A stretch of DNA of 64,000 nucleotides, taken from assembly GCF_041929205.1 (NCBI RefSeq), contig NZ_JBHFNT010000303.1; one strand, given 5' to 3'. This document shows, one piece after another, positions 22,366-52,055 of the stretch; the first letter of the stretch is position 1; the number at the start of each line of letters is the position of its first letter. The position numbers and the translations under genes are program-made. Source of the stretch: Floridaenema evergladense BLCC-F167. Its GTDB lineage: Bacteria > Cyanobacteriota > Cyanobacteriia > Cyanobacteriales > Aerosakkonemataceae. A model generated the notes under the pieces. That model made no database searches. It worked only from the letters and a program-made list of their open reading frames with translations, and was not told where the DNA came from.

Positions 22366-24585
22366 TTACAAGCTGGCTTTAACAAAAACAACAGTTGTTG
22401 ACCAAGGTAATGTTTTGTGGAGTAAGTAGCGGGTGAATAACTCTTGTATTTTCCCAACTTCTTTTTGAGATAGAGTTTGAGCTAAACGTTCTGCTAATGT
22501 AGGGCGAGAGGAATTAGAGTTAACAAACCAGCGTTCTAGTAAACTCGGTGTAATATGCAAATTCGTTTGCAGATGTTCGGGAAAAATTTCTCCCGTTAAA
22601 CCAAGCGACAAAAAAGCTTTCTGCAAATCTTCCACATCCCAATTGACCATTGAATCTAAGGGGTCTGCATAAATACTTTCTTCTGCCATTACCAACCTTT
22701 CGTACAAAGAAGGCTCAAACTGTTTCGGGTCTAGCCAACGATAAAGACGTTGCGTATGACGCGGTACGCTTTCTGCTAACACTAAAACACCTGATTTTGG
22801 TAGTAATTTAGCTATTTTTTGTACGGCAGCAGTTTTGTCTGGTTCTTGTGTTAGTACGTTGCGTCCGATGATGTAGTTAAACTCTACATTGGCAGCTTCG
22901 GCTGTTAGGACATTTGGTAATTCTGCTAAAGTCGATGTCAGCACAAATGGACGCATTAATTCTGGTAGCGCTACTGCAAGTTCTTCTAATGCTGAGGCTT
23001 CTTTATCAGTGCGAACGCAAGCATAAACACCGCCTTCCGGTACTTGGCGGACGGCTTCCCAGGTAAGTAATCCACTACCTGCATTGAGATCCAGTATTAT
23101 ATGATGTCGCTGGAGTTGAACTAAACTAAAAATGCGCTCGCGTACTTTTTCTAATTGCTCTCCAACTTGAGACAAAGTACGCTGCAACCAGCGTTCGGTT
23201 GCTTTATCAGTTGTCCCATAAGTCAACACTTCTGCTGGTGCGATTCCCATACCTTCTAAGGAAGCAGCTAATTGTGCTTCTCGACGACGTGCAACAGCCT
23301 TCTCAATTCCACCTTCAAATCCTTGAAGTGAAGGTTGATAAAATACTTGTCCTTGCAAGCTGGCGGGTAAATATTGTTGAGCTACCCAATGGTCGCGGTA
23401 AGCGTGAGGATATAAATAACCCGCACCATGTCCAAATCCTTTTTTATCCCGATTAGCATCTTTCAAATGGTTGGGTACTTCTGCTTCTTTTTCCTTTTCT
23501 ACTACAGATAAAGCATCGAAAAATCCCATCACGCTATTTGATTTGGCTGTATTTGCTAAATATAAAGTGGCTTGCGCTAAATGATAGCGTCCTTCTGGCA
23601 TTCCTACGCGGTCAAACGCTTCGGCACAAGCATTCACTACTACTACGGCGTTGGGGTCAGCTAGTCCTATATCTTCGCTGGCTAGTATCAACATTCGCCG
23701 AAAGATGAAACGGGGGTCTTCTCCGGCATAAACCATTTTGGCTAACCAATACAATGCGGCATCTGGGTCAGAGCCGCGTAAGCTTTTTATAAATGCACTG
23801 ATGGTATCAAAGTGTGCATCGCCTTCTTTATCGTAGAGGACTGCTCTTTGCTGGATTGATTCTTCTGCTACTGCTAAGGTAATTTGAATAGTTCCTTCTT
23901 TATCTGGTGGTGTAGTTTCTACTGCTAGTTCTAAAGCGTTGAGTAGAGAACGAGCATCGCCATTGGCAACATTTACTAAATGTTCTATAGCATCGGGTTC
24001 TAGCTTTATTTTTAGTTTGCCATAGCCGCGTTCAGAATCATTGAGCGTTTGCTCGATAATACGGTGTAAATCTTCATCGTCGAGCAGTTTGAGTTGAAAA
24101 ATTCGCGAACGGCTAACTAGTGCTTTGTTGACTTCAAAGTAGGGATTTTCGGTAGTAGCGCCAATCAGGATAACTGTACCGTTTTCTACCCAGGGCAGTA
24201 ATGCGTCTTGTTGGGATTTGTTAAAACGGTGTACTTCATCGACAAATAGAATAGTGCGTTGGGAGTGCTTTTTTTGTTTTTCTTGGGCTGTGGAAATCGC
24301 ATCTCTAATTTCTTTGACTCCCGAAAGTACGGCGTTGATGGCAATAAAGTGAGCTTTGGTGGTATTGGCGATGATGCGAGCTAATGTAGTTTTGCCCGTA
24401 CCAGGTGGGCCTGAGAAGATGATTGATGATAGTTGGTCGGCAAGAATTGCACGGCGCAATAAGCGTCCTGGGCTAATGATGTGGTCTTGACCGATAAATT
24501 CATCCAGAGTGCGCGGTCGCATTCTGGCTGCTAGGGGTGCTTCGGTTAAAGCAAACTGCGGTTGATTTTGAGCCAAAGAGTCCAT
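22366..24585 (-). CDS. rarA: replication-associated recombination protein A (RarA/MgsA AAA+ ATPase) with C-terminal methyltransferase-like extension
   Basis: Walker A GPPGTGKTTLARIIA and Walker B ILFVDEVHRFNKSQQDALLP, with the RarA lid/tetramerisation region. An extra ~300 aa C-terminus carries a Rossmann motif-I-like ILDLNAGSGLLT plus NYIIGRNVL. Confidence 0.8.
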   Translation of the reverse strand: MDSLAQNQPQFALTEAPLAARMRPRTLDEFIGQDHIISPGRLLRRAILADQLSSIIFSGPPGTGKTTLARIIANTTKAHFIAINAVLSGVKEIRDAISTAQEKQKKHSQRTILFVDEVHRFNKSQQDALLPWVENGTVILIGATTENPYFEVNKALVSRSRIFQLKLLDDEDLHRIIEQTLNDSERGYGKLKIKLEPDAIEHLVNVANGDARSLLNALELAVETTPPDKEGTIQITLAVAEESIQQRAVLYDKEGDAHFDTISAFIKSLRGSDPDAALYWLAKMVYAGEDPRFIFRRMLILASEDIGLADPNAVVVVNACAEAFDRVGMPEGRYHLAQATLYLANTAKSNSVMGFFDALSVVEKEKEAEVPNHLKDANRDKKGFGHGAGYLYPHAYRDHWVAQQYLPASLQGQVFYQPSLQGFEGGIEKAVARRREAQLAASLEGMGIAPAEVLTYGTTDKATERWLQRTLSQVGEQLEKVRERIFSLVQLQRHHIILDLNAGSGLLTWEAVRQVPEGGVYACVRTDKEASALEELAVALPELMRPFVLTSTLAELPNVLTAEAANVEFNYIIGRNVLTQEPDKTAAVQKIAKLLPKSGVLVLAESVPRHTQRLYRWLDPKQFEPSLYERLVMAEESIYADPLDSMVNWDVEDLQKAFLSLGLTGEIFPEHLQTNLHITPSLLERWFVNSNSSRPTLAERLAQTLSQKEVGKIQELFTRYLLHKTLPWSTTVVFVKASL

Positions 24586-24659: not shown

Positions 24660-25787
24660 TTATTGTGCTGACAGCTTCGATTCAATTTCATTTAACTTGG
24701 AAGCAAGAGCAACTTTCAGTGCTTCCAACTCTTGTTGTTCCATATTATCAAGTGCTATTTCTCGCACTTGCCGAATCATACCTGTAGCACGAGATGGCGT
24801 TTGTTCTTTCGCTTGTTCTTTTAGATAACTGCTAATTTCTGATGAAACTAATGCCCTAGTTTTAGCCACAGATAATTTTTCTTGTAAAATTCGCTTAACT
24901 AACTTGGCTCTAACTTTTTTAGCCTCTGCTTCCTTTATTCCTAACGCTTTGGCATTACAACGCTGCACGGCAATTGCCTGTATTCCCCCCAGTCCTTGAG
25001 TACGAATAGCTTGCTTTAAATCTGCTGCTAATCCCAGCATAGGAAAAATATTGGTATTAATGGAAGCTGGGTTTAATTGCAAAGATAGTAATACGCTAAG
25101 TACGCTCTTTTCTGATGAGTTGAGTTCTAATTCGGCTAAAACTTCTTGTTGTGACTCTGGGCTAACTACTACTATTTCACTAATTTGATTAGTTTTTCCC
25201 TGCCTTTCTAGCCGTCGGACTGCGGTTCTTAAAATGCGAGGAATATCTTGCTCGTTTAAATTACTTGTCTGAGCTATTTCTTTGATTAGCGCTTCTGCCA
25301 TATCTAGCGGATTTAAGTTTTCCCGATGCAAGTTGGCGAGGAGAACGCGACGGTGCAACGCTTCGGGACAAGGGATAATTACTGCTTTTATCGTACCCCA
25401 CTGCAATTGCAAAGCCGCACGCCAACGTCGTTCTCCATCAAATAGTAGATACCGTCCATCTGGTTGTTCTATGAGGATAATTGGTTCCTGCTGTCCATCG
25501 CTAGCTAGGGAAACCATCATCCCGTTAATGCTTTCCGGTGAAAATGTCTGTCTTGGTTGGTCTGGGTTAGGATCTATCTGCTCCACTGATATGTCTATTA
25601 CACCCCCTGATGTGAGAGTTGAACGCAATTCTTGCACTTTGGTTTCAACTTGTTGAGAGTCAACGGAACGCAATTGCTCTATTTCGGCTTGCAGTTCGGT
25701 TATTTTAGTTTCTAAGGCGTGGACTTCTTGAGAGTATTCCGCACCAGAGAACAGATTGGATAGGTCTATTTGTGGTTTTTTACTCAT
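24660..25787 (-). CDS. parB: ParB/Spo0J-family partition protein
   Basis: ParB N-domain with ...EPIILIEQPDGRYLLFDGERRWRAALQL.... Its start overlaps the parA stop (ATGA). Confidence 0.8.
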   Translation of the reverse strand: MSKKPQIDLSNLFSGAEYSQEVHALETKITELQAEIEQLRSVDSQQVETKVQELRSTLTSGGVIDISVEQIDPNPDQPRQTFSPESINGMMVSLASDGQQEPIILIEQPDGRYLLFDGERRWRAALQLQWGTIKAVIIPCPEALHRRVLLANLHRENLNPLDMAEALIKEIAQTSNLNEQDIPRILRTAVRRLERQGKTNQISEIVVVSPESQQEVLAELELNSSEKSVLSVLLSLQLNPASINTNIFPMLGLAADLKQAIRTQGLGGIQAIAVQRCNAKALGIKEAEAKKVRAKLVKRILQEKLSVAKTRALVSSEISSYLKEQAKEQTPSRATGMIRQVREIALDNMEQQELEALKVALASKLNEIESKLSAQ

Positions 25788-26586
25788 GTTTAGTCTTCGA
25801 TTTCTTGAGCAGTTGAGTAATTTTGGTGACTATTGGGGTGAAGTCTTTACAGGCTGGATGTAAAGGACGATAAAGGTGAATTGGTAATCCTAGTGCAGAG
25901 GCATTCTTGAATTCTGATGAGAAACGGATTGGTTGGAAGCAGTGAATGGATAGTTTGGATAGTTGTGGTTCTAGGGAAGCTAAGATGTTGCGGTGAATGG
26001 CGATCGTCTTGTCGTATTGATTAGGTACAAATCCGAGGATCTGCGGTTCTGGTTTGAGTCTCAGGCGACGAGAGTTGTGGTAAAACCATTCTATGAGTTT
26101 GCCCGACCCATCTGCTGATTTTGGTTCTACTTGTATCGGAACTAGTAAATGTGTACAAGCGGAAAGGGCGATTAAAGGTAATGGCCCTAATGTGGCAGGA
26201 CAGTCGAAAATGAGAATGTCTTGAGGTAATGGATAATCTAATAGGCGATCGCCAAGTAAATAAGCACCCCGTTCGTGCAACACTAGTTCGTTAATAGTCT
26301 TTACTAATCCCATTTCTCCTTGTACGGCTACTACGTTTTTTACCTGGTCTTGCCATAAGGGTGTAGTAGGCCAGTTTCCCTGGAAATCGTCTCGCAATAC
26401 AGCGGCAATAGTTTGGTCGGGATGAGGTCGGGGTAATCCTCCCATTAGGGAACAGGAACCTTGTGGGTCTAAGTCAACGAGCGCTACACTGAACCCAGCA
26501 TTGCCTAATAAGTAAGCCAGATGCACGGCTAGGGTAGTTTTCCCACTGCCACCCGCGTTGGAAAGGAGCGCTAGTCTGATTGCCAT
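25780..26586 (-). CDS. parA: ParA/Soj-family partition ATPase
   Basis: Deviant Walker A region LALLSNAGGSGKTTLAVHLA...VDLDPQGS. The signature Lys is replaced (NAGG instead of KGG). Typical ParA length. Confidence 0.75.
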   Translation of the reverse strand: MAIRLALLSNAGGSGKTTLAVHLAYLLGNAGFSVALVDLDPQGSCSLMGGLPRPHPDQTIAAVLRDDFQGNWPTTPLWQDQVKNVVAVQGEMGLVKTINELVLHERGAYLLGDRLLDYPLPQDILIFDCPATLGPLPLIALSACTHLLVPIQVEPKSADGSGKLIEWFYHNSRRLRLKPEPQILGFVPNQYDKTIAIHRNILASLEPQLSKLSIHCFQPIRFSSEFKNASALGLPIHLYRPLHPACKDFTPIVTKITQLLKKSKTKHE

Positions 26587-26667: not shown

Positions 26668-27255
26668 TTAACCAGGAGAAACTATTGCTTTTACCTGAGC
26701 GACAGAATTTTGTTGTAATGCACGAACAGCGAGATCCTCACAAGCAGCTACACTTAATTGGGAAATCGCCTGTTTAATTACCGGGATAGCTGGAGGATTA
26801 ACACTCAACTTATCGATTCCCAAACCTAACAAAATTGCTGTAGCGGCAGGCTCGGCAGCTAGTTCACCACATAAACTCACCCAGATTCCCGCCCGATGAG
26901 CAGCTTGAACTGTTTGCTGCACCATGAGTAACACAGCTGGGTGCATCGCATCAGCCAAAGCAGCTACTTGTGGGTGAGTGCGATCGCTAGCCATCACATA
27001 CTGACTCAAATCATTAGTCCCAATACAAAAAAAGTCTACCTCCGCTGCTAAGCGCGAGGCAAGCACCACTGCTGAAGGTACTTCGATCATAATTCCCAAA
27101 GAAATCGTTCCCGCAACCGGAATATTCGGTTGACGCAGTTCCGACTGCACTTCCGAAAGGATTCCTTTGGCAGCTTTAACTTCCTCTAGAGGGGCAATTC
27201 CCATACTACGCCCATTCATGTTCACTCGTCTGCACAAATCTGCTATTTGTGACAA
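26668..27255 (-). pseudogene. C-terminal fragment of a PEP-utilizing enzyme (PtsI-like TIM-barrel domain), N-terminally truncated
   Basis: GIMIEVPSAVVLASRLAAEVDFFCIGTNDLSQYVMASDR...CGELAAEPAATAILLGLGID matches the Enzyme I C-terminal domain (FFSIGTNDLTQY). At 195 aa it is far shorter than a full ~570-aa enzyme, and no upstream domains are present. Confidence 0.5.
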
Positions 27256-27268
27256 ATCATATCCTTGC

Positions 27269-28725
27269 TCAGATGCGGCACCACAAATTTTCTCTGCCAG
27301 TAGCTAATTGACCTTCAATTCTTGCCGCTTCTGCTTTTGCTCTCGCTGCTGCGGTAGCTTGACCTGTAGTTTCGATCGCAGAGTTTTCCGCTTGCAATTC
27401 TAACAGATTTCTCCGTTCCGCTTCGGCTGCACCTTTATCAACAATTGCCTGTCTTTCTAACCTAGATTTTGCTTCTTGTTCGATCCGTTCGGCATCATGT
27501 CTAGCAGCAGCTTCTTGGGCATCAGTAGTAATTTGAATCGCAATTTGTACCGACTTTTGCAAACTTTTCAAAGTTTCTTCATCTACTGGTTCTACTGATT
27601 GAATATCAACGTTAAAAATTACCAAATTATTGGTTCTAAAACGGAATTCTTCCCGCACTCGACCTTCGGTATCTGTACCAAATACAGCAGTACGAATAAT
27701 CCGAGCAGAATTGCGGTGAAACTCGTCAAATTTTACACTGGCTACTGCACCCCGAACGCGAGATGCGATCGCTTTACAAGCAGTATCTACAAAATCAGGT
27801 ACTTGGAAAAGTTTTGCCGCTGCTTGTTCATCATCTCGATTAACATCAAAATACCAATTATAAGACAAACGTAACTGAAGTCTGGCATGATCTGATGTTT
27901 CAACTGTGAACAAATCAGTCATAAAATCTGGGCCTAATAATAAGGCCAAAGACTTGATTATATGAGGTCTTTTTGGTACGCTACCGGATAAACTCAACAC
28001 CGTAAAAGCTTCATCTGGCCCCAGCATTACTAAGTCTGGGCCAAATACAGTTCTGGCGGTTCTTTCCTTATAATCATGTATTTGCACGGCGGCATTTTGG
28101 GGAACATGAAAAACCACAGCCCTTGTTTTATTTCGTTCGCTTCTTGTCTCAGATTTCGAGGGAATTTCTGATATTTGATTTTGCCGATCGCCACCTTTGT
28201 TAGTATGATGTCGCCCCCTTTCCGAAACCGGATCGTTTTTAATTGCTAATAGTTCTTCCACAATTGGTGGCAATTCTTTTTCCCACAGTTCTTCATAAGG
28301 ACTGAGCATATAAGCTTGCGGGCCACTAACAACTTTCACTTCACCTGTTTGAATATCTCTAATATAAATTCCTTCATTCTTATCCAGAGGAATTGCTTGA
28401 CGTTTTTCAACTACTTCTACTTGCACAGGAGGGATATAATCTCTTGGCCCTGCAATCATCCACATATCCCCTGGTTGACGTTGAATTAATATCGAGGTGG
28501 TACAATAATCATCGGTTCCGGTTTTAATATTAACCGTTCGTGATCGCGCAAAGTAATAGTTTGTGGGCCAACTTCCAGTCTAGTCACCCCTGTATTGTTA
28601 TCTAAAACGTGAATAAATTGCTGAGGTTTTAAGCGAATTATGCCGCTAGCAATTCCTGGTAATTCGGATTTATTTTCTGTAGTGCGATCGCTTATATTCA
28701 TAGCCATCTTTTCCAAGTAATTCAA
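27269..28725 (-). pseudogene. major vault protein (MVP)-like gene, fragmented and truncated
   Basis: Fragment 28486-28725 ([29 protein letters not shown]...IIVPPRY) resembles MVP repeat 1. A TAA stop and +1 frameshift follow. Fragment 27269-28465 aligns by recollection with MVP repeat 8, the shoulder and the start of the cap-helix ([22 protein letters not shown]..., [48 protein letters not shown]). Repeats 2-7 and the distal cap-helix/C-terminus are absent. Confidence 0.55.
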
Positions 28726-29136: not shown

Positions 29137-32100
29137 TTAAGATTGCAAATCAAACAGATTGCCCTGTCCACAGTTACCATTGATAATCTCTAAGAGTGCA
29201 GTACGTTCGGTTTCATTAAAATGCCATCGCCATACCCAAAAAGCGCGAATTTGCCCGTACTGATTAGCGATCGCTTCCCAATCCGCCTGACACTGTATTA
29301 CTGCCAAAAGTTTCGCTATTTGACGTGGTTCCTTTGTTTGATTGTACCCCCTAGTACCTGGATACTCGGCTGGCAATTGGATTAACGTATCATCTGAAAG
29401 TTTCAGAGTGATAGCACGAGGCGTATTGTCCTCTAACACCAAACCAGATTCCCCAGAGGCAGGTGAAACTGGTGAGACTGGTGAAACCAGATGAAACTGA
29501 GGTAAAACTGAAGCGGTTTCAAGTTCAAACCCTTGATTAGTAAGAGTTTCAGTCGGTGAAACCATTGAAACCAAATCTTGAGAACTAGAGACTAAATCTG
29601 TTTTTTGAGTTTCTTGGTTTCCTTCACAGTTATGAGAGGCTGAAACAGTTGGTATTAGGTGATTAGAGCCGGAAACTGAATTTAGTTTCTCATCAGTTTC
29701 ACTATCAACGACAACTTCAGCGTCAGGAGGCATATCGTCACCACCTGGATGATTTGGGCGATCGCCAGGGCCATTGTCGGGAGGATTGTCAGGTGGATCT
29801 GTGTCATCGGAGTCAATACCAAACAACTCAATGGGAATTAACCACGCCTTTTTCATTTTCTTTTGCGGTGGGTTAGGTTTAAGCAACCTCCCTTCAGAAT
29901 CGTACCCTGCTGTTAACAAAGCTCGCTTATAGGCTAAAACTTCATCTCGCGAAGCATCAAAACGGACAGAGCGATCGACTATGCCACCTATCTTCAATAA
30001 AGTAGCTTTGAGGGATTTTTGATTGTAAGTGGCAGGTTTAAAAGCTTTTTGGACTTCACTCCAAACACTCGCCGGATGAATAGCTACCCACTGTACACCG
30101 TCGTCATCAGTCAATAAACGCTTATCCCAACTACCAACTTCGTCTTTCCCTTCCAACGCCTGAATGCAGCGAACAAAATCAGTTAATGGGTTGCCATTAT
30201 TCTCCTCATCATTCTCGATCGGTGTTAAGTTATCCAAAGCCCAAATGCGAGGTTGTTCGTTTCCTCCTACCAGTTCAATTACCTTTTCGGCATAATAGAC
30301 AACCAGTGCCAAATTCCAAGCAATACGTTCGTGTGCTAAAGGTAATCGGGCTAAAAATTCACTGCAAATAGCATTAATTTCCTGGGGATGATAGCCAATC
30401 CCAATTAATGTGGAAAAAGAACCGGAAGCTAATTTCATCGCCTCCTTCAGCTGAGGAATCGCTACAGTGTCACCACCTGGGTAAAAAGGAACTCTGGCAA
30501 ACCGAGTGAAAGCCGCATCGTGTTCGCCGCCTAGTATATGGTTACTGGTAAAGCCTAAAGGACTGCGTGGTGTTTGCCGATTTCCCCTGACTACACGCGG
30601 TTTGGCGTTGTACATCGCCTTGCAAAATTCGTCCAACTCTCTAGTACTGTCCCCGTTGCGTGGAGGATCGTCCCAGATTACGGGTAAACTACCTGTTTTA
30701 CTCAGGTGTTCGTAGACAGCAGAGATGGTAACTTTGCTAATCATTCCCAAAGATGCCCAGTTGGTGCCAACTAGAGAAAGTGCTGCTTCTAAGGCAACGG
30801 TTTTTCCCGTACCAATAGCACCGTAGGCATTAAGAATCGGGAATCGTCCTTCTTTATCTAAGATTGTTTGAAAATGAAGCCCAGCAATTACCCAACCACA
30901 ACAAAGTAAAAATTGATTGATATTATCTGCACCAAAAACTATTCTGGCAGCTGCAATTAAACGTTTTAAACCTTCAATTCCCGTATCTTCTGCCACTATT
31001 GGACAGGGAATAAAGTCCTCTTTTCCTAATGCTGGGTCAAATACGGTAGAACTATCGCTTTCAGTTGTTGGTTGACCATCTGATGTGAACTGAGCATTAT
31101 TTAATACCCATAAGCCGTTTGATTGTTGTCCGTAGCGATCGATCGACCGAAAAATTTGCCCCTCACGATGACGGCGATACACTGCTTGTTTGGCAGCAAT
31201 TAAAGCATTAAGTTCCCATTTAGTTAAACTAACCACCACCACAAATCCTAAAGCTTTGGAAAGGGCAGTGGTGAATTTATCGGGTGATGTCAAGTCAGTC
31301 GCTTTGATCAGTACTCGATACTGTGTTTGTTCCCATTCTGGTTTCAGTTGCAGTATGAAACCGCCCCCTTCTTCCGAGGTGAGTTCCCGTTCAATGGCGA
31401 AATCAAAATTACAGCGAGGTTGCCAAGTAATCTCGCCATCCTTGTTTGTTTTCCAGTAACCGATGGTTCCCAAGTAGCTTTGCGGTTCGTTCCAATCAAC
31501 AGTTTCTGCTTGTTCAAACTGCTTTTCCCAAAGGTTGATAGAGGTACATTTACCAATTACTTCATGGATAAAGTTATTAGCACCGTGATTTTGGATGTAA
31601 TCATCGGCTCCTTTATCACCGTTGGGATAGCTCTCATCACATTGCCACAAACCAGTTGCGTTGTACAAGGGGACTTGAAAGGCTTTTAGCTGGTGCGCGA
31701 GTTTGCGCTGTGCCCAGCGAACACCAGGTTTGGTAGCAGCATCGGCATCAAAGCAGAAGATGAAACCGAAACCTGCTTTAGCGAAGTTCTCTAGTCCGGG
31801 TACCAAGTAGCGTTTCTTTTGTGGGTCTTCCTTGCTACTGGTTAATCCCATCTCGACACCGAGTAAGACAATCGTAGCAATGCCAGCAGCATTAATTGCC
31901 ATCCCGGTGAACACGCCTTCTGTAATCACTAAACAGGGATGACCGTCTATTTTATAAGCTTTTTGTTTGAGTGCTTCTAGGTCATTCCAGAACCGGGGGT
32001 CATCTGGGTGATGTAGGAGAATCGCATCGTAGTCACCCAATGGTGAACGATACTTGGGGGCTTTCTTTGTTTTATCGTCTCGCCAGGGTTTATCGGGTAA

Positions 32101-32304
32101 AAATTGAATCTGAATCCCGATTCCTTCAAGTAGTATGCCATCTGATTTGGCGGTGTAACCCAGTCGGTATGAGGCTTCTTGAGCAGAAACGGAACGACAG
32201 TTGGCTAGTGCCCAATTTAGCGGTAGTCCCCGTCGATAGATTTCCTGGATATGACGGGGATTAAGGGTTTCACAAGTGCTTTTGTTCTCAGATTCCATGT
32301 TCAC
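29137..32304 (-). CDS. plasmid-type replication primase-helicase (TOPRIM-like DUF3854 N-domain + SF3/D5-like P-loop NTPase)
   Basis: 1055 aa. The N-terminal region (..FIFCFDADAATKPG..) resembles the TOPRIM-like DUF3854 domain. The central part has Walker A LNAYGAIGTGKTVALEAAL and Walker B SLPVIWDDPP. A Pro-rich low-complexity linker (PPDNPPDNGPGDRPNHPGGDD) precedes a C-terminal domain. An iteron-like region lies directly upstream. Confidence 0.6.
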   Translation of the reverse strand: MNMESENKSTCETLNPRHIQEIYRRGLPLNWALANCRSVSAQEASYRLGYTAKSDGILLEGIGIQIQFLPDKPWRDDKTKKAPKYRSPLGDYDAILLHHPDDPRFWNDLEALKQKAYKIDGHPCLVITEGVFTGMAINAAGIATIVLLGVEMGLTSSKEDPQKKRYLVPGLENFAKAGFGFIFCFDADAATKPGVRWAQRKLAHQLKAFQVPLYNATGLWQCDESYPNGDKGADDYIQNHGANNFIHEVIGKCTSINLWEKQFEQAETVDWNEPQSYLGTIGYWKTNKDGEITWQPRCNFDFAIERELTSEEGGGFILQLKPEWEQTQYRVLIKATDLTSPDKFTTALSKALGFVVVVSLTKWELNALIAAKQAVYRRHREGQIFRSIDRYGQQSNGLWVLNNAQFTSDGQPTTESDSSTVFDPALGKEDFIPCPIVAEDTGIEGLKRLIAAARIVFGADNINQFLLCCGWVIAGLHFQTILDKEGRFPILNAYGAIGTGKTVALEAALSLVGTNWASLGMISKVTISAVYEHLSKTGSLPVIWDDPPRNGDSTRELDEFCKAMYNAKPRVVRGNRQTPRSPLGFTSNHILGGEHDAAFTRFARVPFYPGGDTVAIPQLKEAMKLASGSFSTLIGIGYHPQEINAICSEFLARLPLAHERIAWNLALVVYYAEKVIELVGGNEQPRIWALDNLTPIENDEENNGNPLTDFVRCIQALEGKDEVGSWDKRLLTDDDGVQWVAIHPASVWSEVQKAFKPATYNQKSLKATLLKIGGIVDRSVRFDASRDEVLAYKRALLTAGYDSEGRLLKPNPPQKKMKKAWLIPIELFGIDSDDTDPPDNPPDNGPGDRPNHPGGDDMPPDAEVVVDSETDEKLNSVSGSNHLIPTVSASHNCEGNQETQKTDLVSSSQDLVSMVSPTETLTNQGFELETASVLPQFHLVSPVSPVSPASGESGLVLEDNTPRAITLKLSDDTLIQLPAEYPGTRGYNQTKEPRQIAKLLAVIQCQADWEAIANQYGQIRAFWVWRWHFNETERTALLEIINGNCGQGNLFDLQS

Positions 32305-33327
32305 ACCTTATAAGCTTGTTGGTGCTGGTGGTAATCCAGAACTGATTTTGGAGAGATGAGTAATCTAGGTACTCAATAAACAGTGAGGTCTTATGTGGCA
32401 TAGTCTTTAATTTTGTGCGCCATGGCGCACAAATTCAAGGATGCAGAATTTTTTAGCTCTTTTAGATTAGCAGCCCCCTGTTCACAGACATTTGACAGTC
32501 CTTGGATCATAATGATCATAATGATCAGATTTGTGAACAAAAATGGAACCCTTACTGAATAAAGGTTTAAGACGACGAAAAAATATTTTTGGGTAAGCCG
32601 AGGGGTATTTCTGGGTAAGCCGAGGGGTATTTTTCTGTGTACAGGCTGAATATTAGTATTGGCAAGGGTTTGGGACTTTTGGTTAACTCAAGGGGTATTA
32701 TTGTTCACTAACTCTTAATGAAGCTAAAATGCAAGTGGATAAGGCTTTTCAGATGTTCTAGTTCAGATTGAGTTTCCTGTTCACAAGGAGTCATTAGATA
32801 CGCCTCATTCAGTGCAAAGAGTACCTGATTCATACAAGTCTCATCTCATTGCTCGCTATGTTTATCCAACTAACGCAGTACTGCCTAAGTTCAGTCTCGC
32901 AAAACAGTCTTGAGGAACTGAAGCAGCGAAGCTCACTACTTCAGTTCACCCGCGACAGATTGCCAATCTGGAACTGATTTTAACTGCTTCAGGTCAGGTT
33001 CAGTCCTTTCGATATAAGCAAGTAAGATTGTCGGAAGCTGGATGCGATGAAAGTTGCACATCCAGATTTAACAGAGAGGGGCGAGGGGTATTGACTGCTC
33101 CTCAATTCCTGTCTCAAATTACTTAAACTTGCTCATTCATTCAGCTAGAACCAGCAAATGAGCAAGTTTAACCTAAACACGAAACTAAGAAAGCGGTAAA
33201 AACAAATGATTAATTCATTAGCTTTTTAAATAGCTCAATAACTGAATTAAATTATTATTTAAAGTTTTTAAAGGTCGGGATTAAATATGTTAGAATTAAC
33301 CAATATACATATTAAGTAATTGCTTAA
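32305..33327. promoter_or_regulatory. non-coding region with iteron-like direct repeats and palindromes; putative replication origin / rep promoter
   Basis: About 1 kb has no convincing ORF. It contains the 22-bp palindrome TTTGTGCGCCATGGCGCACAAA (32412-32433). GATCATAAT is tandemly repeated 2.6 times (32505-32528), flanked by inverted TGTTCACA/TGTGAACA. The 20-mer GGGTAAGCCGAGGGGTATTT is repeated in tandem (32591-32610, 32613-32632). GAGGGGTATT cores recur at 32691 and 33082. CCTGTTCACA recurs at 32776. Confidence 0.35.
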
Positions 33328-34548
33328 ATGCTGAAAAGTTTTAAGACAAAGCTAAACCTAAATAACCAGCAAAGAACATTAGCTTCTCAACACGCAGGGG
33401 TTTCTCGTCACGCTTGGAATTGGGGTTTAAATGTTTGTCTTACAGCAAAAGATGCTCAGGAAAAGCGACCAAGTGCTATTGACTTACATAAGCGATTAGT
33501 AGCAGAAGTTAAATCAGTTAATCCTTGGTATTATCAAGTTTCCAAATGCGCTCCTCAACAAGCGTTAAGATATTTAGATGAAGCATTTAAACGTTGTTTT
33601 AAAGTTCCGGGGACTCGTCAACCTAAGTTTAAAAAGAAAAATATTAAAGACAGTTTCTATCTAGAAGGAAATATTAAGATTTCTGGCAATCAGATCAAAA
33701 TCCCTAAGTTTGGCTGGGTTAAATGTTATGAAATCCTCCCAACAGTTCAACCTAAAAATGTCACCATTTCCAAAAAAGCAAATGATTGGTATATCAGCTT
33801 TAGATACGAGTTAGAGCCATCGCCAATTCGCCATACTAGAAAGCGGATCGGAGTTGACGTAGGAATTAATGCTCTGGCTACTTGTTCGGATGGTACAGTT
33901 TTTCCTAACCGGAAAGCTTATCGAAAGGCTAAAAGAAAGTTAGCTCATCTGCAACGGTCTTTCTGTCGTAAGCAACTCGGTTCAAAAAACCGCGCCAAAG
34001 CAAATCTAAAGGTAGCTAGATTGCATAGAAAAGTTGCTAACATCAGACAAGACGCATTGCACAAACTAACAACTTGGCTAGCTAAAAACCACAGCGAAAT
34101 TGTGATAGAGAATTTAAACGTCTCTGGAATGCTAAGAAATCATAGATTGGCTAGTGCTCTTGCTGATTGTGGATTCTATGAATTTAAAAGGCAACTTGAA
34201 TATAAAGCTAGTTGGTATGGTTCAACAGTAATTAGAGTTGACAGGTTTTACCCAAGCTCGCAACTTTGTAGTTGTTGTCATCATCGTCAAAAAATGCCAC
34301 TCTCAAAAAGAATTTTTAAGTGTGGCAATTGTGGGATGGAGTTAGATAGAGATTTGAATGCCAGTATTAATTTAGAAAATTGGCACGCCATTATTGAATT
34401 TCCAACAACCGTTAGCTCAACGGGGATTGCTTGTGGAGAGTTAAGTAAACTTAATGGTTCAACTGTTAAGGATTCGATGAAGCAAGAAGAAAACGTTAAA
34501 TTTACTTGGTTTGCAGCTTCGTTCTGTGACCAAAGTAAGTTTGAGTAA
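33328..34548 (+). CDS. tnpB: IS200/IS605-family accessory protein TnpB (OrfB, RuvC-like + zinc finger)
   Basis: 406 aa. Typical TnpB N-terminus ...NQQRTLASQHAGVSRHAWNWGL.... The RuvC-like core is IGVDVGINALATCSDG. The C-terminal zinc finger is CSCCHHRQKMPLSKRIFKCGNCGMELDRDLNASINL. No tnpA is adjacent. Confidence 0.85.
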   Translation: MLKSFKTKLNLNNQQRTLASQHAGVSRHAWNWGLNVCLTAKDAQEKRPSAIDLHKRLVAEVKSVNPWYYQVSKCAPQQALRYLDEAFKRCFKVPGTRQPKFKKKNIKDSFYLEGNIKISGNQIKIPKFGWVKCYEILPTVQPKNVTISKKANDWYISFRYELEPSPIRHTRKRIGVDVGINALATCSDGTVFPNRKAYRKAKRKLAHLQRSFCRKQLGSKNRAKANLKVARLHRKVANIRQDALHKLTTWLAKNHSEIVIENLNVSGMLRNHRLASALADCGFYEFKRQLEYKASWYGSTVIRVDRFYPSSQLCSCCHHRQKMPLSKRIFKCGNCGMELDRDLNASINLENWHAIIEFPTTVSSTGIACGELSKLNGSTVKDSMKQEENVKFTWFAASFCDQSKFE

Positions 34549-34568
34549 GTTTTTCGGAGCGGACAACC

Positions 34569-36185
34569 TCAGTGATTGTTTTCCAGTGCTTGGTTGAGGC
34601 GCTTTTGGGTTTGGGCAGTTATAGGTCGTTTGCCAGTTTCGATCATCGAAACCATAGATTTAGCCAGCCCTGCTAATTCAGCAAGTTTAGTAACGCTTAA
34701 TCCTTTCGCTATTCGGAGTTTTCTTACCTCTTCTCCAGTAAGTAGGGAACAATTTAAAAACTGCTGAGACTGAAGTTTAGTATTACTCTGCTGCTTACGC
34801 TTATGAGCTTCGTCAGTTAAAAGTTTTTTCTGGTTAGACTTCCTCTGCTTTGTAATCCCATTCAATCTCTGGACAATCTCTGCTGGAGAACGTACCCAGA
34901 GCCTACCACCTAGTAGCTGTTCAAAACCAGCGGGTGTACGTTTTGTAAAATCAGTCAAGCGTGTCCCTTCTTCCTCAGTCGCATCCAAAGCCCAAAAAGA
35001 TGCCGCTTCTTCAGGATCGTTGGGTATGCTTGTGAGCGGGCTGGGGTTCACTAATTCCGGCCAGTACTGAAGTGGATAAGTTTCCGAATCAGGTTGAATA
35101 CTCCATCCTTTCTCTAGTAAAACTCTCAGCGTAATTTCCCAACGTCTGACCAACTTTTTCCTTTCTTTTGAAGAAGTAATAGCATCTGTCACTAATTCTT
35201 CTCCAAAGGCAACTTTCATTAATGTTTCTACTATCAGCGGACTGCCTGGGTTGACTTTAGTTTTGAATAGCAGCCAGGTCATCAGTCGTGCTGCACCAGG
35301 ATGGTCATACCAAATGCTCATTAAATCGCGTAGCAATCCTTGAGACAAGATCCCGTACTCGTAATAGCCTGCTCTAGAGGCACGTTTTTCCTTATTAAGA
35401 AAGTATTGCGCCCAGTTTCCACATCGGATCTTGAGCGTAAATCCTACGAGCGTTTTCTCACCAATGGGGTTTCCTTGGCGATCGGAAAAACAATCTTGGT
35501 AGTGCAAAATAGGCTCAGCAATCTCCCAAAGGTAAGTGCGACTGACGCTGAACGCTCCAACCGCTCCTTTTTCCGGCCATGATGCGTACACCAGAAGATG
35601 ACAAGGTTGTTTCGCCAGTTCTAACAGCCATGTTAATTTTTGTTGCTTGTTTAGCTTTTTGTTATAGTTCAGACCCAAATATCGTTCCAACTGAACATTA
35701 CTTATAACAAATTGTTGCTCCCAAGGGCGATCGAGTTGTGTAGCATGGGCAGCATAGATCAAATGAAGACAGGCAGCTCGAATATCAAATTGCTCTATCA
35801 GGGCTAGAGCAGCTTCTCCCTCCAAGACAGCAGGAGGCTTTGTGTGCAAATCATCAGTTACCCAAAAAGATATATAGCCCTGACCTTTAGCAACAGGACT
35901 TTCGTAATAGGGTTGCCCTTGTTCAGCGTTAAGCCAACAAAGATTCTGACCTTGCGTCAGAATGTTACATCCTTCCCAAATTAATCTGTTCGATGCCATA
36001 AAATTGGTTTGACCATCGGGGAACAAATTGGGGCTAGTCGGTGGACGGGAAAAGGAACGGTAGCGTCCCCGACGTTGCGGTTGGCTGCTCCGCTCTTTTT
36101 GAGGAACTGCCTTACCAGCTATCTCTGGCTGCTCTGAGGTTCCTAATTGTGTATTGATATTAATTTTATTATTTGTTCCTGGCAT
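34569..36185 (-). CDS. large protein with C-terminal XRE/Cro-type HTH
   Basis: 538 aa. The C-terminus LTGEEVRKLRIAKGLSVTKLAELAGLAKSMVSMIETGKRPIT is a Cro/C1-type helix-turn-helix. The N-terminal ~450 aa are unassigned. Confidence 0.45.
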   Translation of the reverse strand: MPGTNNKININTQLGTSEQPEIAGKAVPQKERSSQPQRRGRYRSFSRPPTSPNLFPDGQTNFMASNRLIWEGCNILTQGQNLCWLNAEQGQPYYESPVAKGQGYISFWVTDDLHTKPPAVLEGEAALALIEQFDIRAACLHLIYAAHATQLDRPWEQQFVISNVQLERYLGLNYNKKLNKQQKLTWLLELAKQPCHLLVYASWPEKGAVGAFSVSRTYLWEIAEPILHYQDCFSDRQGNPIGEKTLVGFTLKIRCGNWAQYFLNKEKRASRAGYYEYGILSQGLLRDLMSIWYDHPGAARLMTWLLFKTKVNPGSPLIVETLMKVAFGEELVTDAITSSKERKKLVRRWEITLRVLLEKGWSIQPDSETYPLQYWPELVNPSPLTSIPNDPEEAASFWALDATEEEGTRLTDFTKRTPAGFEQLLGGRLWVRSPAEIVQRLNGITKQRKSNQKKLLTDEAHKRKQQSNTKLQSQQFLNCSLLTGEEVRKLRIAKGLSVTKLAELAGLAKSMVSMIETGKRPITAQTQKRLNQALENNH

Positions 36186-41073: not shown

Positions 41074-41805
41074 TTGAATCCAATGATGGGAAATCTTAAA
41101 CAATATCAACTGCCAGTAAAAGTAGGAGATTGCCTTGATTACTTACGTTCGCTCCAGCTGCAAACAATTTTACTAGAGCTTTACGGGCAACTTTTTCCCA
41201 TCCAATGGAGCAATTCTACTATCCCATTGTTCCAACAATCTCATCCCACAGTATACACAGACCGAGAAATCGAATTTTTGCAACTGCTTAATACTTGGTT
41301 TCCCATTGAATATTACGAAGAATTGGAAACAATTGAGGAAAGATATACAGAAATTTATCTGTATCCACAAAACATTAGTTGGTGGAATCAAACATTCGAG
41401 GAACTCAGTCAAGTAGAACAATTTATCATCAGTTTACTAGATTGGGGATACGAGCGGGAAAAATGGGAATCGGTTTTTGGTTTTAGCTCTACTTACACTG
41501 CTAAACCAGAAGAAATTAACTGGGAAAAGTTAGAACGATTATGCCAAACAAAAAAACCGCCATTACAATACTTCAGCAACGTAATTAGCATCATCGACCA
41601 TAGTTCAGACTGCATTTGGCTAGACCTGACTGATGAAAGTTATGAATCCTTGGCTTGGAGTAAAGAGAATATCATTTACCTAAAAAGCCAATGGGGAAAA
41701 GCACTTGAATTACAGCAGCAAATGGCAGAATTTTCAGTTTGGTTTGAAACGAAAGTCGAACACAAAAAAGCCGCCTTAAAACTGTGGAACCAATCTAAAA
41801 AATGA
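41074..41805 (+). CDS. acidic alpha-helical protein, candidate 6E-like component of the Ubl-conjugation operon
   Basis: 243 aa, Glu-rich helical (EIEFLQLL..EYYEELETIEERYTEIY..). It overlaps the E2-like gene start (ATGA), so it sits in an operon with the E2/JAB/E1 genes. Confidence 0.3.
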   Translation: MNPMMGNLKQYQLPVKVGDCLDYLRSLQLQTILLELYGQLFPIQWSNSTIPLFQQSHPTVYTDREIEFLQLLNTWFPIEYYEELETIEERYTEIYLYPQNISWWNQTFEELSQVEQFIISLLDWGYEREKWESVFGFSSTYTAKPEEINWEKLERLCQTKKPPLQYFSNVISIIDHSSDCIWLDLTDESYESLAWSKENIIYLKSQWGKALELQQQMAEFSVWFETKVEHKKAALKLWNQSKK

Positions 41806-42488
41806 ACGTACCATTACCACCTCTAAACATTGGAAAACTGGTGCAAACGATTGTTCCTCAAACCGAGTTGGGTGAAGTACAAGCCCAACTCTTATTTTTG
41901 TCGGGACAGTACGTTTTGATTTACAAAGAACAGGAAAAAACCCATTGTAAATTTGTATCACCAGCCGCAATAGCAAGAGCTTTTACCAATACAGTAATTG
42001 ATTCGGGTTGGCTTGATTGTCATACCGTCCGCTGGGGACATGGTTTATCTGGGGAATGGATAGTGCAGTACTACCCACCGCAGCAGTATCAAATTCTGTG
42101 TGAAAACAATGAATGGCGAATTCCCCTACCTGCCTTCGTATTTATAGGCTATCGGACTAGGTACTGGATTTGGGCATCGAAAACTAAACAGTTTGACCCG
42201 AATGCGGCTTTGTACGCCGCACCTCTACCTAATGTTTATGGTGATGGTGCAATTTGCTTTGGCGAACTGCATCCACCTGATTGTACGCCAAGCCAAATCG
42301 GAGTAGCCTGGAAAATATTTTGGCAGAGTAATTTCAGCAACCATCTAATTCAAGGTAAATCAAAGCACTACCCTCAAGACGTGCTTAAGCAATTAATGCA
42401 GGTGAAAAACAAACGAATTTATCCCAGCAAAGACTTAGTGATTTTCAACAAATCCCTCGACGTTATTTGCCAAGGCATTATCAGATGA
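41802..42488 (+). CDS. prokaryotic E2-like (UBC-fold) protein
   Basis: PLPNVYGDGAICFGELHPPD matches the E2 active-site signature HPN(I/V)...G.IC...L. The catalytic Cys is at nt 42255-42257. 228 aa. Confidence 0.55.
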   Translation: MNVPLPPLNIGKLVQTIVPQTELGEVQAQLLFLSGQYVLIYKEQEKTHCKFVSPAAIARAFTNTVIDSGWLDCHTVRWGHGLSGEWIVQYYPPQQYQILCENNEWRIPLPAFVFIGYRTRYWIWASKTKQFDPNAALYAAPLPNVYGDGAICFGELHPPDCTPSQIGVAWKIFWQSNFSNHLIQGKSKHYPQDVLKQLMQVKNKRIYPSKDLVIFNKSLDVICQGIIR

Positions 42489-43228
42489 AAATTCCTCAAT
42501 TTGTAGAGTATAAAACGGCTTTTGATGCAAGTTTACCACCAATAACTGCTAGCGCACTCGAATATTGGTTATCCAGAAATGGCGTATTTATTCGAGCACA
42601 GCGACAAGGATTAAAAGCTTGTTTCCCCATCGCTAACTGTCGCATTGCTTCCTTGGCAGTAATAGAACCTTATTTTCAGATGGAATACCCTCGCGTACCG
42701 TTGGAAATAACCAAATTGATGTGGTTACTTAGTGAGTCAGCAGGCGAAAATGAAATACTTTTTCACCTATCCTTTGAAACCGGAGGTTGGCATTTAGAAA
42801 TTCCCGCCCAAATTGCTACACCAACGAGCGTTACACCTTTAATCAGTTCGGTTAATTCATCTTATGAAACAGCATTGATTGAAGTGCATTCTCATGCCAA
42901 CATGAGTAGTGAATTTTCGGAAGCAGATAATCGAGAAGAAACTGGATTTAGAATTTTTGCCATTCTAGGTAAGCTGAGAAGCCAACCGGAAATTAATACT
43001 CGAAGTGACGTTCTCTCCCGCCCGAGCTTGCGCTATAACGGGAGCTTCTCACTTCAGAATAAAGATAGCTGTACGCCATCCCCACCTGAGAAAGCTTCAC
43101 ACTTCACAGGCTGGGTATCCCCTAAGCCTCTGTGTGCAGACAAGATGAGTCCCACCTCGTTTAATGCTCGTTCTAATATATTTCGAGCGGCGTTTTCATC
43201 TCTATCCATTGCTAGGCCGCACTTATGA
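42467..43228 (+). CDS. JAB/MPN+ (JAMM) metalloprotease-domain protein; C-terminus probably disrupted by IS
   Basis: JAMM motif ...WHLEIP...IEVHSHANMSSEFSEAD (E ... HxH-x7-S-xx-D) at nt ~42885-42925. The ORF then runs into the 3' end region of the minus-strand tnpB (from ~42980). Its distal part is therefore probably IS-derived read-through. Confidence 0.5.
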   Translation: MPRHYQMKIPQFVEYKTAFDASLPPITASALEYWLSRNGVFIRAQRQGLKACFPIANCRIASLAVIEPYFQMEYPRVPLEITKLMWLLSESAGENEILFHLSFETGGWHLEIPAQIATPTSVTPLISSVNSSYETALIEVHSHANMSSEFSEADNREETGFRIFAILGKLRSQPEINTRSDVLSRPSLRYNGSFSLQNKDSCTPSPPEKASHFTGWVSPKPLCADKMSPTSFNARSNIFRAAFSSLSIARPHL

Positions 43229-44343
43229 CATTCGTGCAGGCGAATAGATAGAGTTTTCGGTACTTTTGCGCCACAACTTGAGCAATTTTGAGATGTTCCA
43301 TGAGGACTTACTTTTACAATTCGGACACCGCATTTAACTGCCACTGCGTCCAAAATGGTAATGAACCTCCCCCATGCTGCATCCAAAATTGATTTGCTCA
43401 ATCTTGTTCGAGCAAGCCCTTTGATGTTTAGATCTTCTACCGCAATTAAGTCATACCTTTTGACTAAATTGTGAGCGGTGTTATAGTGAAAGTTTTCCCT
43501 AATCCGACCAATTCTCTGATGAATTCTGGCTATCTTATTTTTCTGCTTGTTAGAGCGATTCGACCCCTTTTTTGACCTTGCTAACTTACGTTGTTGACGA
43601 GCCAAATGAGACTGAGTTTTGCGGTAGATTTGTTGAATGGGAACTGTCTCACCTTCAGAAGTGGTAAGAAATTCCTTGAGTCCCACATCAATGCCAATAA
43701 CTGTTTTCACCTCATCCAATGGCTTATGTTCGGGTACAGTTTCATCCTCCATAGAAATACAGCAGTACCACCCATCAGCTTTGCGAACAATGGTGCAAGT
43801 TTTTAGGGTAAATCCATCAGGAAGAGGACGATGTAAGATGACTAGCATCTCTCCTATCTTTGACAGTTTCAACACACCATTGTTAAGATGCGCTCCTGCT
43901 TTTGGACAATTTATTCGTGGGTAAACGAATGACCGCAACTCATCAACTTTTTTAAATTTGGGTCTACCACCTCGCTTGCCTGATTTATCAGGAAATAACC
44001 AACGCTCGATCGCCTTATTCAATCTTTGCAAATTAACTTGCTGTGACTCTGACCAAATATTTTTGTACTCAGGAAACAACACTTTAGTTTGCTTTAGATC
44101 CGACTGCTGCGTGTAGTAATTAACAGTTGCAGGTATCTCTCCGATTGGCTCATAAATTATACTGCAACGGTCAATTTGACATCTGGTTCGTCGTAGCCAA
44201 TCTAACCTCTGCTCCAGACAATAATTCCAATGCCGTCGAAGCAACTCTAATGTATGGAGCATAGTTGCTTCTTGTTTGGCATTGGGTTTAATTCGGTAGC
44301 AGTAAGTTAGAATCATAGCTGTTATTTTACAGCTTATCGCCAA
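43054..44343 (-). CDS. tnpB: IS200/IS605-family TnpB (OrfB)
   Basis: 429 aa. RuvC-like IGIDVGLKEFLTTSEG. Zinc finger CSSCGAKVPKTLSIRLHECHKCGLAMDRDENAARNI. No tnpA is present. Confidence 0.85.
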   Translation of the reverse strand: MAISCKITAMILTYCYRIKPNAKQEATMLHTLELLRRHWNYCLEQRLDWLRRTRCQIDRCSIIYEPIGEIPATVNYYTQQSDLKQTKVLFPEYKNIWSESQQVNLQRLNKAIERWLFPDKSGKRGGRPKFKKVDELRSFVYPRINCPKAGAHLNNGVLKLSKIGEMLVILHRPLPDGFTLKTCTIVRKADGWYCCISMEDETVPEHKPLDEVKTVIGIDVGLKEFLTTSEGETVPIQQIYRKTQSHLARQQRKLARSKKGSNRSNKQKNKIARIHQRIGRIRENFHYNTAHNLVKRYDLIAVEDLNIKGLARTRLSKSILDAAWGRFITILDAVAVKCGVRIVKVSPHGTSQNCSSCGAKVPKTLSIRLHECHKCGLAMDRDENAARNILERALNEVGLILSAHRGLGDTQPVKCEAFSGGDGVQLSLF

Positions 44344-44422
44344 TCATGACAATAATATACGATAAAGGATTCAGGTCTGTTTACTAGTCTACCGAAAACC
44401 TGTCTTCTGGACTGGCTCTACG

Positions 44423-49379: not shown

Positions 49380-49482
49380 TTAAGGAATTAGGGAGTAGGC
49401 AACTTTGATTCGCTGCTCTCTATTTCCTAATAATAAACACTGCTATCGCAGCGATAAGTCGAACCATTAAATTGCCAGAATT

Positions 49483-50922: not shown

Positions 50923-51019
50923 GTGAAAAAGGGAGAAGGAGAAGAAAGTTATGAGTTATGAGATTCAACTCAAAACTCATAACTTTACCTGCTCTCCCTA
51001 ATTACTCTTAAATCAATCA

Positions 51020-51955: not shown

Positions 51956-52055
51956 ATTCCTCGATTTTATTAGTCCAATTAAAAGTATACATTAGACAAA
52001 ACTTTCTTTTCCCCTAGCGGGGATTCTCTGGGAACTTTTGTGAAAAACTGGAATA

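Follow-up and report, generated by a model that had tools for sequence, protein, structure and literature searches.

We analysed a 64-kb stretch of DNA from Floridanema evergladense, called the window throughout, around a tract at 32305-33327 that a first-pass annotation had marked as a single iteron-type origin (oriV) belonging to the adjacent TOPRIM/SF3 gene. The replicon is a conjugative-type plasmid of about 65 kb that encodes much of its own replication machinery. Comparison with related loci suggests, with a probability of roughly 0.6, that the segment from 32452 to about 32800 is the core of the plasmid's vegetative replication origin and that the initiator is the 538-amino-acid (aa) helix-turn-helix (HTH) protein encoded upstream of it. 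Only the half of the tract nearer the TOPRIM/SF3 gene (32299 to about 32800) is a conserved control region with phased repeats like those of an iteron-type origin, an A/T-rich stretch beside them and a GC-skew minimum nearby, whereas the half from about 32800 to 33327 consists of an intron stub and the end of an insertion sequence (IS). The region is ordinary in principle, yet it points to an undescribed initiator family and to an exchange of origin and helicase modules.

The loci used for comparison came from [Phormidium] LEGE 05292 (L001, L006 and L004), Desertifilum (L008), metagenomic contigs (L011, L016 and L018), Microcoleus FACHB-SPT15 (L045), Leptolyngbya NIES-3755 plasmid3 (L052) and Synechococcus PCC 7502 pSYN7502.01 (L053). 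The elements of the conserved half and the two genes that border it ancestrally are listed here.

29137-32298, minus strand: primase-helicase gene, 1053 aa from the ATG, with a DUF3854/Toprim-like N-terminus, an SF3-type NTPase core and a small C-terminal domain
32299-32451, minus strand: module B, the leader/promoter region inherited with the primase-helicase gene; kept with L001, L008, L016 and L018
32412-32433: perfect 22-bp palindrome TTTGTGCGCCATGGCGCACAAA, 114 bp from the likely ATG at 32298; DNA fold z-score -3.6
32479-32486, plus strand: left box TGTTCACA, 8 bp, one arm of an inverted pair; invariant in the window, L001, L008, L016 and L018, and present in L045
32505-32526: three GATC sites at a 9-bp phase (GATCATAAT repeated 2.6 times), between the inverted boxes
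32532-32539, minus strand: right box TGTGAACA, 8 bp, the other arm of the inverted pair; kept in L001, L008 and L016
32540-32590: A/T-rich spacer from the box/GATC element to the iterons, ending in AAAAAATATTTTT; its ATTTTTTCG and AAAAATA blocks are conserved
32589-32632: two perfect 22-bp iteron units, which read AAAAATACCCCTCGGCTTACCC on the strand of the flanking genes
32636-32645, minus strand: degenerate box CCTGTACACA with one mismatch, directly 5' of the iteron array; a full GTGAACAA box stands there in L018 and L045
32672-32708: composite in which a box (TGTTCACT) adjoins a dispersed degenerate iteron (...AACTCAAGGGGTATTAT); kept in L001 and L008
32776-32785, plus strand: distal box CCTGTTCACA, the final conserved element before the insertion; TTGTGAAC(A/G)GG in L001 and L008, also present in L045
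34569-36185, minus strand: gene of the 538-aa protein with a C-terminal XRE-type HTH, ancestrally about 550 bp upstream of the primase-helicase gene

The 20-mer GGGTAAGCCGAGGGGTATTT, which had been described as a tandem repeat with a 22-bp period, is present in two perfect copies at 32591-32610 and 32613-32632. Shuffled sequences are expected to contain none, and the 20-mer is unique to this array in the 64-kb window, where it does not behave as a member of a dispersed repeat family. A degenerate third copy (74%) lies at 32672-32702. Two further iteron cores had been proposed; the one at 32690 (AAGGGGTATT) belongs to this third copy and is conserved, whereas the other, at 33083, lies in domain VI of the intron stub and is absent from the relatives. 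The GATC repeat flanked by inverted boxes (32479-32539) and the third box at 32776-32785 were both found as described, and five of the ten TGTTCAC heptamers of the window fall within 487 bp. The inverted elements of the tract are these 8-bp boxes. The A/T content reaches 0.68-0.72 at 32490-32570 compared with about 0.60 around it, a modest enrichment that is nevertheless the maximum of the region and lies beside the iterons; the GATC 9-mers are the sole repeated element resembling 13-mers there. A GC-skew analysis, which had been suggested as a check, placed the detrended cumulative minimum at 31,653, where the skew switches within a block of co-oriented genes, and the maximum at 59,488, on about the opposite side of a circle of 65 kb.

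Positions 32299-32790 of the window align at 73-80% with the regions upstream of the orthologous primase-helicase genes in L001, L008, L011, L016 and L018, relatives that belong to other genera, and all elements of this part are conserved at equivalent positions in close relatives; the L018 counterpart of the right box is in direct orientation and not inverted. The 22-bp period is constant, while the number of copies ranges from 2.3 in the window through 3.2 in L001, 3.4 in L008 and 3.5 in L011 and L018 to 3.7 in L045. The iteron cores (CCCCTCGG, CCCCTCGC and, in L011 and L018, ATCTTTCAC) are lineage-specific and uniform within each locus, so that the variable part reads ...ACCCCTCGGCTTACCC in the window, ...CGCC... 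in L001 and ...ATCTTTCACCTTACCC in L011 and L018. In L018 a dispersed degenerate copy 68 bp from the array also carries the core of its lineage (AAGAATATCCTTCACCTTACC). Since this non-tandem copy has changed in the same way as the array, selection on one binding specificity seems to have acted, and not slippage alone.

The GATC sites keep their 9-bp phase while the spacers between them differ (CATAAT versus CTTTCT), and GATC clusters adjoin boxes in L045, L046, L050 and L052 as well. As GATC is constant and the spacers are variable, the conserved element is GATC and not a -10 hexamer; a sigma-70 promoter between the boxes was rejected for the same reason, the -10 hexamer varying in relatives. 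The triplet is a candidate unwinding and/or methylation-sensing element.

It had been assumed that the repeats are tied to the TOPRIM/SF3 gene, and two comparisons contradict this. In L045, an HTH gene 70% identical to that of the window is followed by a spacer homologous to window positions 32452-32800 (76% over 32504-32634), with TGTGAACA boxes, 3.7 copies of AACCAAAAATATCTTTCACCCT and a TGTTCACAAATC-TGATTATTCTGATCATTCTGATCC element. The homology stops at GCTAATCTA (about 32452-32460), module B is missing, and the gene that follows encodes a 1154-aa protein which has no similarity to the primase-helicase of the window and no match anywhere in the window. The converse is seen in L006 and L004, which carry a second copy of the primase-helicase, 94-100% identical to that of the window, behind a spacer that is unrelated except for its last 56 nt. 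In the L006 spacer the 22-bp triplet is another one (TCCCGACCCCCTGGTACCAAAG), and so is the box before it (TTGATTACA; sites of the types TTGATTACA and TCCCGACCCCCTGGTACC), and the HTH protein encoded upstream of it is only 37% identical to ours. Taken together, the L045 and L006/L004 comparisons split the tract into two separately inherited modules, one of origin type (32452 to about 32800) travelling with the HTH gene and one, the leader at 32299-32451, with the primase-helicase gene. Both ends of the L006 and L004 contigs at this gene carry the inverted sequence GGTTCTTCCGTACTTACTGTGCTAAATTATTAGGGAAGTG, which points to an IS insertion, and that copy of the gene may be dead.

These comparisons bear most directly on the model of the first-pass annotation, in which the DUF3854/SF3 primase-helicase itself binds the repeats and the TGTTCACA boxes, much as the P4 alpha protein acts on TGTTCACC, and the palindrome serves as an autoregulatory operator. 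In every close relative the repeats do precede the primase-helicase gene at a distance of 180-490 bp, the TGTTCAC core is also that of the P4 "ori type 1 repeats" (in the annotated P4 record, ori or crr holds 13 of the 15 such sites), and the small conserved C-terminal domain that follows a flexible linker could bind DNA. Moreover, CyRepA1 and CyRepA2 replicate with only their open reading frame (ORF) and upstream DNA (PMC9978351, PMC10079941), and the counter-example in L006/L004 is a copy disrupted by an IS. Against this model, the homologous module stands before an unrelated gene in L045, a 94-100% identical primase-helicase stands behind unrelated repeats and boxes in L006/L004, and there is no detectable similarity to P4 alpha. 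A "hypervariable" stretch of the protein (aa 800-950), considered as a specificity domain co-evolving with the iteron core, was rejected, the stretch being a low-complexity linker rich in Pro, Asp and Ser. We therefore regard direct binding by the primase-helicase as unlikely, although it is the best of the alternatives.

The HTH protein of the preferred reading belongs to a family of at least 349 relatives, which occurs on 42 complete cyanobacterial plasmids at about one gene per plasmid and is annotated only as XRE/HTH regulator or as hypothetical. Arrays of boxes and iterons accompany it in several of these replicons. L046 has about ten composites of TGTACTCA and GAAATAGCTTTCACTTTAGAG, after which come a 22-bp array, an A/T tract and a GATC cluster with boxes on either side; L050, L052 and L053 have 8-11 TGATTACA boxes and 7 to 10 or more CTAGAnCCCnnCCCC iterons; and pANACY.01 has a 22-bp doublet. 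Between loci the box changes at all its positions together, and the pair that brackets the GATC cluster changes with the rest. Beyond the spacer the next gene varies: it is a DUF3854-SF3 gene in the window, an annotated CyRepA1-family Rep gene in L053, the gene of the 1154-aa protein in L045 and a member of a family of 552-856 aa in L046, L050 and pANACY.01. The start of HTH helix 3 differs with the box type and reads AKS or GKS with TGTGAACA, SQK with TGTACTCA, and SQG or SQS with TGATTACA.

At the sequence level the only domain seen in the 538-aa protein is the HTH, which is closest to restriction-modification controller C proteins, HipB and SinR. A structural model predicts that the core of the protein resembles the double winged-helix of pi, RepE and RctB. 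PDB sequences searched with a profile yielded only HTH domains, and a viral fold library gave only HTH matches.

The nature of this domain favours a second alternative, namely that the module is a transcriptional or copy-control region in which the HTH protein, as an XRE repressor or activator, occupies multiple operators while replication starts elsewhere. The boxes overlap a promoter-like site directed towards the gene (-35 TTCACA, -10 CATTAT), and a large gene always follows the module. However, 7 to 10 or more helically phased direct repeats far exceed the needs of an operator, the -10 hexamer varies while the GATC sites stay, and the same module stands before mutually unrelated genes. In addition, the predicted core of the protein is like that of iteron-binding initiators, and both the minimum of GC skew and the A/T-rich stretch fall at the module. 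We consider a purely regulatory role improbable. That the repeats are a centromere-like partition site or an origin of transfer is very improbable indeed: plasmid centromeres typically consist of short direct repeats in an array that an HTH protein binds, the window contains type IV secretion system (T4SS) genes and the HTH gene of Leptolyngbya plasmid3 adjoins parAB, but in the window parA and parB lie 6 kb off (24660-26586), there is no relaxase beside the tract, helicase or primase genes are the regular partners of the module, and the HTH protein is unlike ParB or ParR in fold searches.

Several observations weigh against an origin read by the 538-aa protein. Proteins with an XRE HTH usually act as repressors. 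Confidence in the structural model is medium (pLDDT 67.5, pTM 0.54), Pfam gives only HTH domains and no Rep_3 signature in 52 members of the family, and hhalign against F RepE returned a probability of 0.1%. In the window itself there are only two perfect iterons and the A/T enrichment beside them is modest. The sole DnaA-box-like site, TTATCCACT at 32746-32754, matches at 8 of 9 positions; it lacks conservation in L001 and L008 and was rejected as a DnaA box. The covariation between helix 3 and the box is confounded by phylogeny and is suggestive only, and a specific pairing of SQK with TGTACT boxes was rejected since it fails in pANACY.01. L048, a 480-kb plasmid-annotated contig of Phormidium sp. 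CLA17, has no repeats in the 1.9-kb spacer downstream of its family member. The L006/L004 copy of the primase-helicase is split by an IS at codon ~455 (L006 7300-7490, L004 1-130), and that replicon may be defunct. Finally, the primase-helicase could by analogy be the initiator here too, given CyRepA1 and CyRepA2, DUF3854 proteins for which the ORF and its own upstream region support autonomous replication without an HTH protein of this kind (PMC9978351, PMC10079941).

In L048 a DUF3854 gene is found upstream of the HTH family gene and not downstream.

If the 538-aa protein is the initiator, its monomers would occupy the composite sites of box and iteron, where the box may be read by the HTH and the iteron by the winged-helix core. 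Once gathered on the phased sites, the initiator would open the neighbouring A/T-rich, GATC-containing DNA; the plasmid's own DUF3854/SF3 primase-helicase (29137-32298) would then load there and prime, and the plasmid-encoded sliding clamp and clamp loader would assist synthesis. The GATC phasing suggests methylation-dependent control, and the methylation state of these sites may gate re-initiation. The palindrome probably governs expression of the primase-helicase gene.

An origin of this kind would work like the class-A theta iteron origins of R6K, F and pPS10, with which it shares helically phased direct repeats of about 17-22 bp and a repeat sequence that is replicon-specific and homogeneous. 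The differences from R6K gamma ori/pi, F ori2/RepE and pPS10/RepA are considerable. The proposed initiator, roughly double the size of pi or RepE, has an additional XRE HTH at its C-terminus and lacks the Rep_3 sequence signature; the sites are bipartite, an 8-bp box and an iteron; no DnaA box is conserved; and the primase-helicase, clamp and clamp loader are supplied by the plasmid. Unlike the half-iteron operators of F and R6K, the palindrome is unrelated to the iterons.

In its predicted architecture the protein is like RctB, the initiator at ori2 of Vibrio cholerae chromosome 2, although its additional DNA-binding domain is a C-terminal XRE HTH where RctB has domains 1 and 4. The RctB iterons are 11- and 12-mers that contain GATC, whereas here GATC forms a separate phased triplet between the boxes, and we saw no evidence of inhibitory sites of the 39-mer type or of a crtS-like trigger. 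The IncQ (RSF1010) oriV combines a separate iteron-binding initiator, RepC, with the plasmid-encoded helicase RepA and primase RepB', and its array is short at about 3.5 copies. The division of labour proposed here, a separate initiator beside a plasmid helicase and primase, is similar, but here a single SF3/DUF3854 protein combines helicase and primase, and no ssi sites were identified.

Among cyanobacterial systems, CyRepA1 (Slr7037, pSYSA) and CyRepA2 (pCC5.2) resemble the downstream gene in having DUF3854, and on pSYN7502.01 a CyRepA1-family gene stands behind a similar HTH gene and a spacer with boxes and iterons. In contrast to CyRepA1, the C-terminal part of the protein in the window is a different NTPase module, and the control of pSYSA is RNA-based, via ssr7036/asRNA1. 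The word "iteron" does not occur in the CyRepA and CyRepX papers that were searched, and a broader literature search returned no report of iterons in a cyanobacterial plasmid. The arrangement also recalls phage P4 ori/crr, where a primase-helicase gene lies near clustered 8-bp repeats with a TGTTCAC core in both orientations. Homology with P4 alpha was nevertheless rejected by BLASTP (E = 5), only the TGTTCAC motif being common; P4 is without 22-bp iterons, and in related replicons the boxes become TGTACTCA or TGATTACA along with the HTH gene and not with the helicase. The motif shared with P4 is probably a coincidence.

The distal half of the tract has a different history. It is conserved with none of the relatives compared, and comparison with them shows that it is the beginning of an insertion of about 1.75 kb (~32800-34558). 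In Desertifilum (L008) a spacer of 554 bp separates the HTH-gene stop codon from the primase-helicase gene, and this spacer aligns with window positions 32299 to about 32800; homology with L008 and L001 resumes at 34559, 10 bp from the HTH-gene stop, which places the right junction at 34558/34559. The insertion appears to have split an ancestral spacer of about 550 bp and to have left the origin core untouched. Its left edge (~32800-32850) and the IS ends are approximate. It is made up of the following parts.

32800-33017: insertion-side DNA, which may hold up to about 50 bp of diverged ancestral spacer
33018-33112, plus strand: 5'-truncated group II intron remnant with domains V-VI only (RF00029 and blastn)
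33113-34558, plus strand: IS200/IS605-type element with tnpB only (tnpB 33328-34548), ends inferred

The first of these gave no match in the relatives or the plasmid collection, no Rfam match and no remnant of an intron reverse transcriptase (RT). The intron remnant was recognised by Rfam RF00029 at 33033-33112 (41.6 bits; gathering score 40), and in blastn against plasmids only 33018-33090 matched, at 82-87% identity, to intron 3' ends beside RT/maturase genes in nine Nostocales plasmids. Neither domains I-IV (no D1-D4 Rfam model at E <= 1) nor any trace of an RT or intron-encoded protein by tblastn was found, so the element is a 5'-truncated stub and not an intron. An ORF-less group II intron reaching from the palindrome GTGCG (32414) to 33112 was rejected, as 32299-32790 is kept in relatives without the stub and D1-D4 are missing. 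The iteron core proposed at 33083, GAGGGGTATT, sits in the loop of domain VI. The homologous intron of Anabaena cylindrica reads GCGCGGGATAAT at that position; the resemblance to the iterons is thus incidental, and the site was rejected as a distal iteron.

The plasmid pANACY.01 of A. cylindrica (L017, 10550-13100) carries a full-length relative of the intron in the same slot and orientation, 85% identical over domain V, between an HTH gene of 27% identity and the 22-bp doublet. The spacer next to the origin may be a homing target of this intron lineage or a place where it is tolerated.

The tnpB assignment is clear (NF040570, 305.7 bits; cutoff 100), and the element has no tnpA. Its left end has a subterminal hairpin at 33123-33171 with perfect 15-bp arms (z -5.9), while the right-end hairpin is weak. 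A RAGATH-18 match, omega-RNA-like, lies inside the 3' end of tnpB at 34430-34488, at 38.4 bits and thus below the gathering score of 44.9. No second copy of the IS that would fix its ends was found: the only other contig with an identical TnpB is an assembly of the same locus that ends within the iterons, and the second tnpB of the window is unrelated at the DNA level. For annotation, the lesson is that mobile-element debris can make up half of a "non-coding origin tract".

The leader on the other side of the origin module contains the 22-bp palindrome, a candidate operator or 5'-leader hairpin, at close to the distance of about 110 bp from the rep start that had been given for it. In L018 it is altered symmetrically on both arms (GTGCGCC..GGCGCAC to GAGCGCC..GGCGCTC), which fits a dimer operator or a hairpin. 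The palindrome is not an inverted half-iteron; it is unrelated in sequence to the iterons and is placed before the primase-helicase gene and not before the HTH gene. No conserved sigma-70 promoter was found, and none could be assigned near the palindrome. A TGTGAAC overlapping the ribosome-binding site and ATG of rep is probably not a functional box, since it is unchanged in a relative with a different box type. A 17-nt direct repeat (32333-32349, AATCCAGAACTGATTTT; 32965-32981, AATCTGGAACTGATTTT; 15 of 17 positions identical) joins the primase-helicase leader and the insertion DNA; by a rough estimate it is near chance level.

The ORF of the primase-helicase spans 29137-32304 (1055 codons). 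The GTG at 32304 is its maximal start, and the likely ATG at 32298 is preceded by AAGGTG. The label TOPRIM/SF3 was a fair one, given the DUF3854/Toprim-like N-terminus and the SF3-type motifs: DUF3854 (Pfam PF12965) was detected at aa 123-241 with 65.3 bits, and Walker A GSIGTGKT, Walker B VIWDD and motif C FTSN are invariant in the protein alignment. The C-terminal 650 aa recur in proteins with DnaG-type Toprim or PrimPol N-termini. The protein did not reach the NCBIfam CyRepA1 model, nor any NCBIfam family at E <= 0.01; similarity to annotated CyRepA1-family genes is about 30% and is confined to aa 70-281. The Pro/Asp/Ser-rich linker (aa ~830-975; 29137-29600) evolves fast and separates the SF3 core from the conserved small domain at aa ~975-1053. 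A megablast search of 29137-34600 against plasmids gave zero matches.

The window also encodes, besides parA and parB and the T4SS genes, two blocks of replication accessory genes (47958-54361 and 22366-24585), which comprise a PIF1/RecD-like helicase, a DNA polymerase III beta clamp, the clamp-loader subunits gamma/tau and delta, and an MgsA-like AAA+ ATPase fused to additional C-terminal sequence. Downstream of the primase-helicase gene, with a 79-aa ORF between them, lies a bacterial gene resembling major vault protein (MVP shoulder and vault repeats; 27269-28465), and after it part of a PEP-utilising enzyme domain (26668-27255), apparently truncated. The second, unrelated tnpB (43054-44343, minus strand) is inside a Prok-E2/JAB/ThiF cluster for ubiquitin-like conjugation (41802-45091); it overlaps the JAB ORF, and the remaining ThiF ORF begins at profile position 49, so this cluster is probably disrupted. 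Two adjacent tRNA genes are found at 54648-54796. One is a tRNA-Ala(CGC); for the second ARAGORN gives a 4-base anticodon (gaaa) and no amino acid, and Rfam scores both as ordinary tRNAs.

In an independent short-read assembly of the locus (L010, Logan contig SRR30638121_26348), the contig breaks at about 32603, within the 22-bp tandem repeat. In draft assemblies, origins of this type may often go missing where contigs end.

Plasmid replication in cyanobacteria is poorly understood, and the sole proteins with an experimental link to it are CyRepA and CyRepX. A wider proposal, which we hold tentatively and at a little below even odds, is that the ~540-aa "XRE regulators" of filamentous and some unicellular cyanobacteria are an undescribed family of initiators with a core like that of pi, RepE and RctB and a C-terminal HTH, which read box and iteron while the helicase/primase modules beside them are interchangeable; the DUF3854 "Rep" would then be a helicase-primase and not the reader of the origin. 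The interchangeable partners may include DUF3854-SF3, CyRepA1 and at least two more unannotated families. Should our reading of the region hold, cyanobacterial plasmids would have a compact and recognisable origin grammar together with a candidate initiator family on at least 42 complete plasmids, and the annotation of DUF3854 proteins as "Rep" on such plasmids would change. The three box types and several iteron cores would make incompatibility groups predictable, which would help in the design of compatible shuttle vectors for filamentous cyanobacteria, and the modules of origin plus initiator and of helicase would be exchanged between these plasmids independently of each other.

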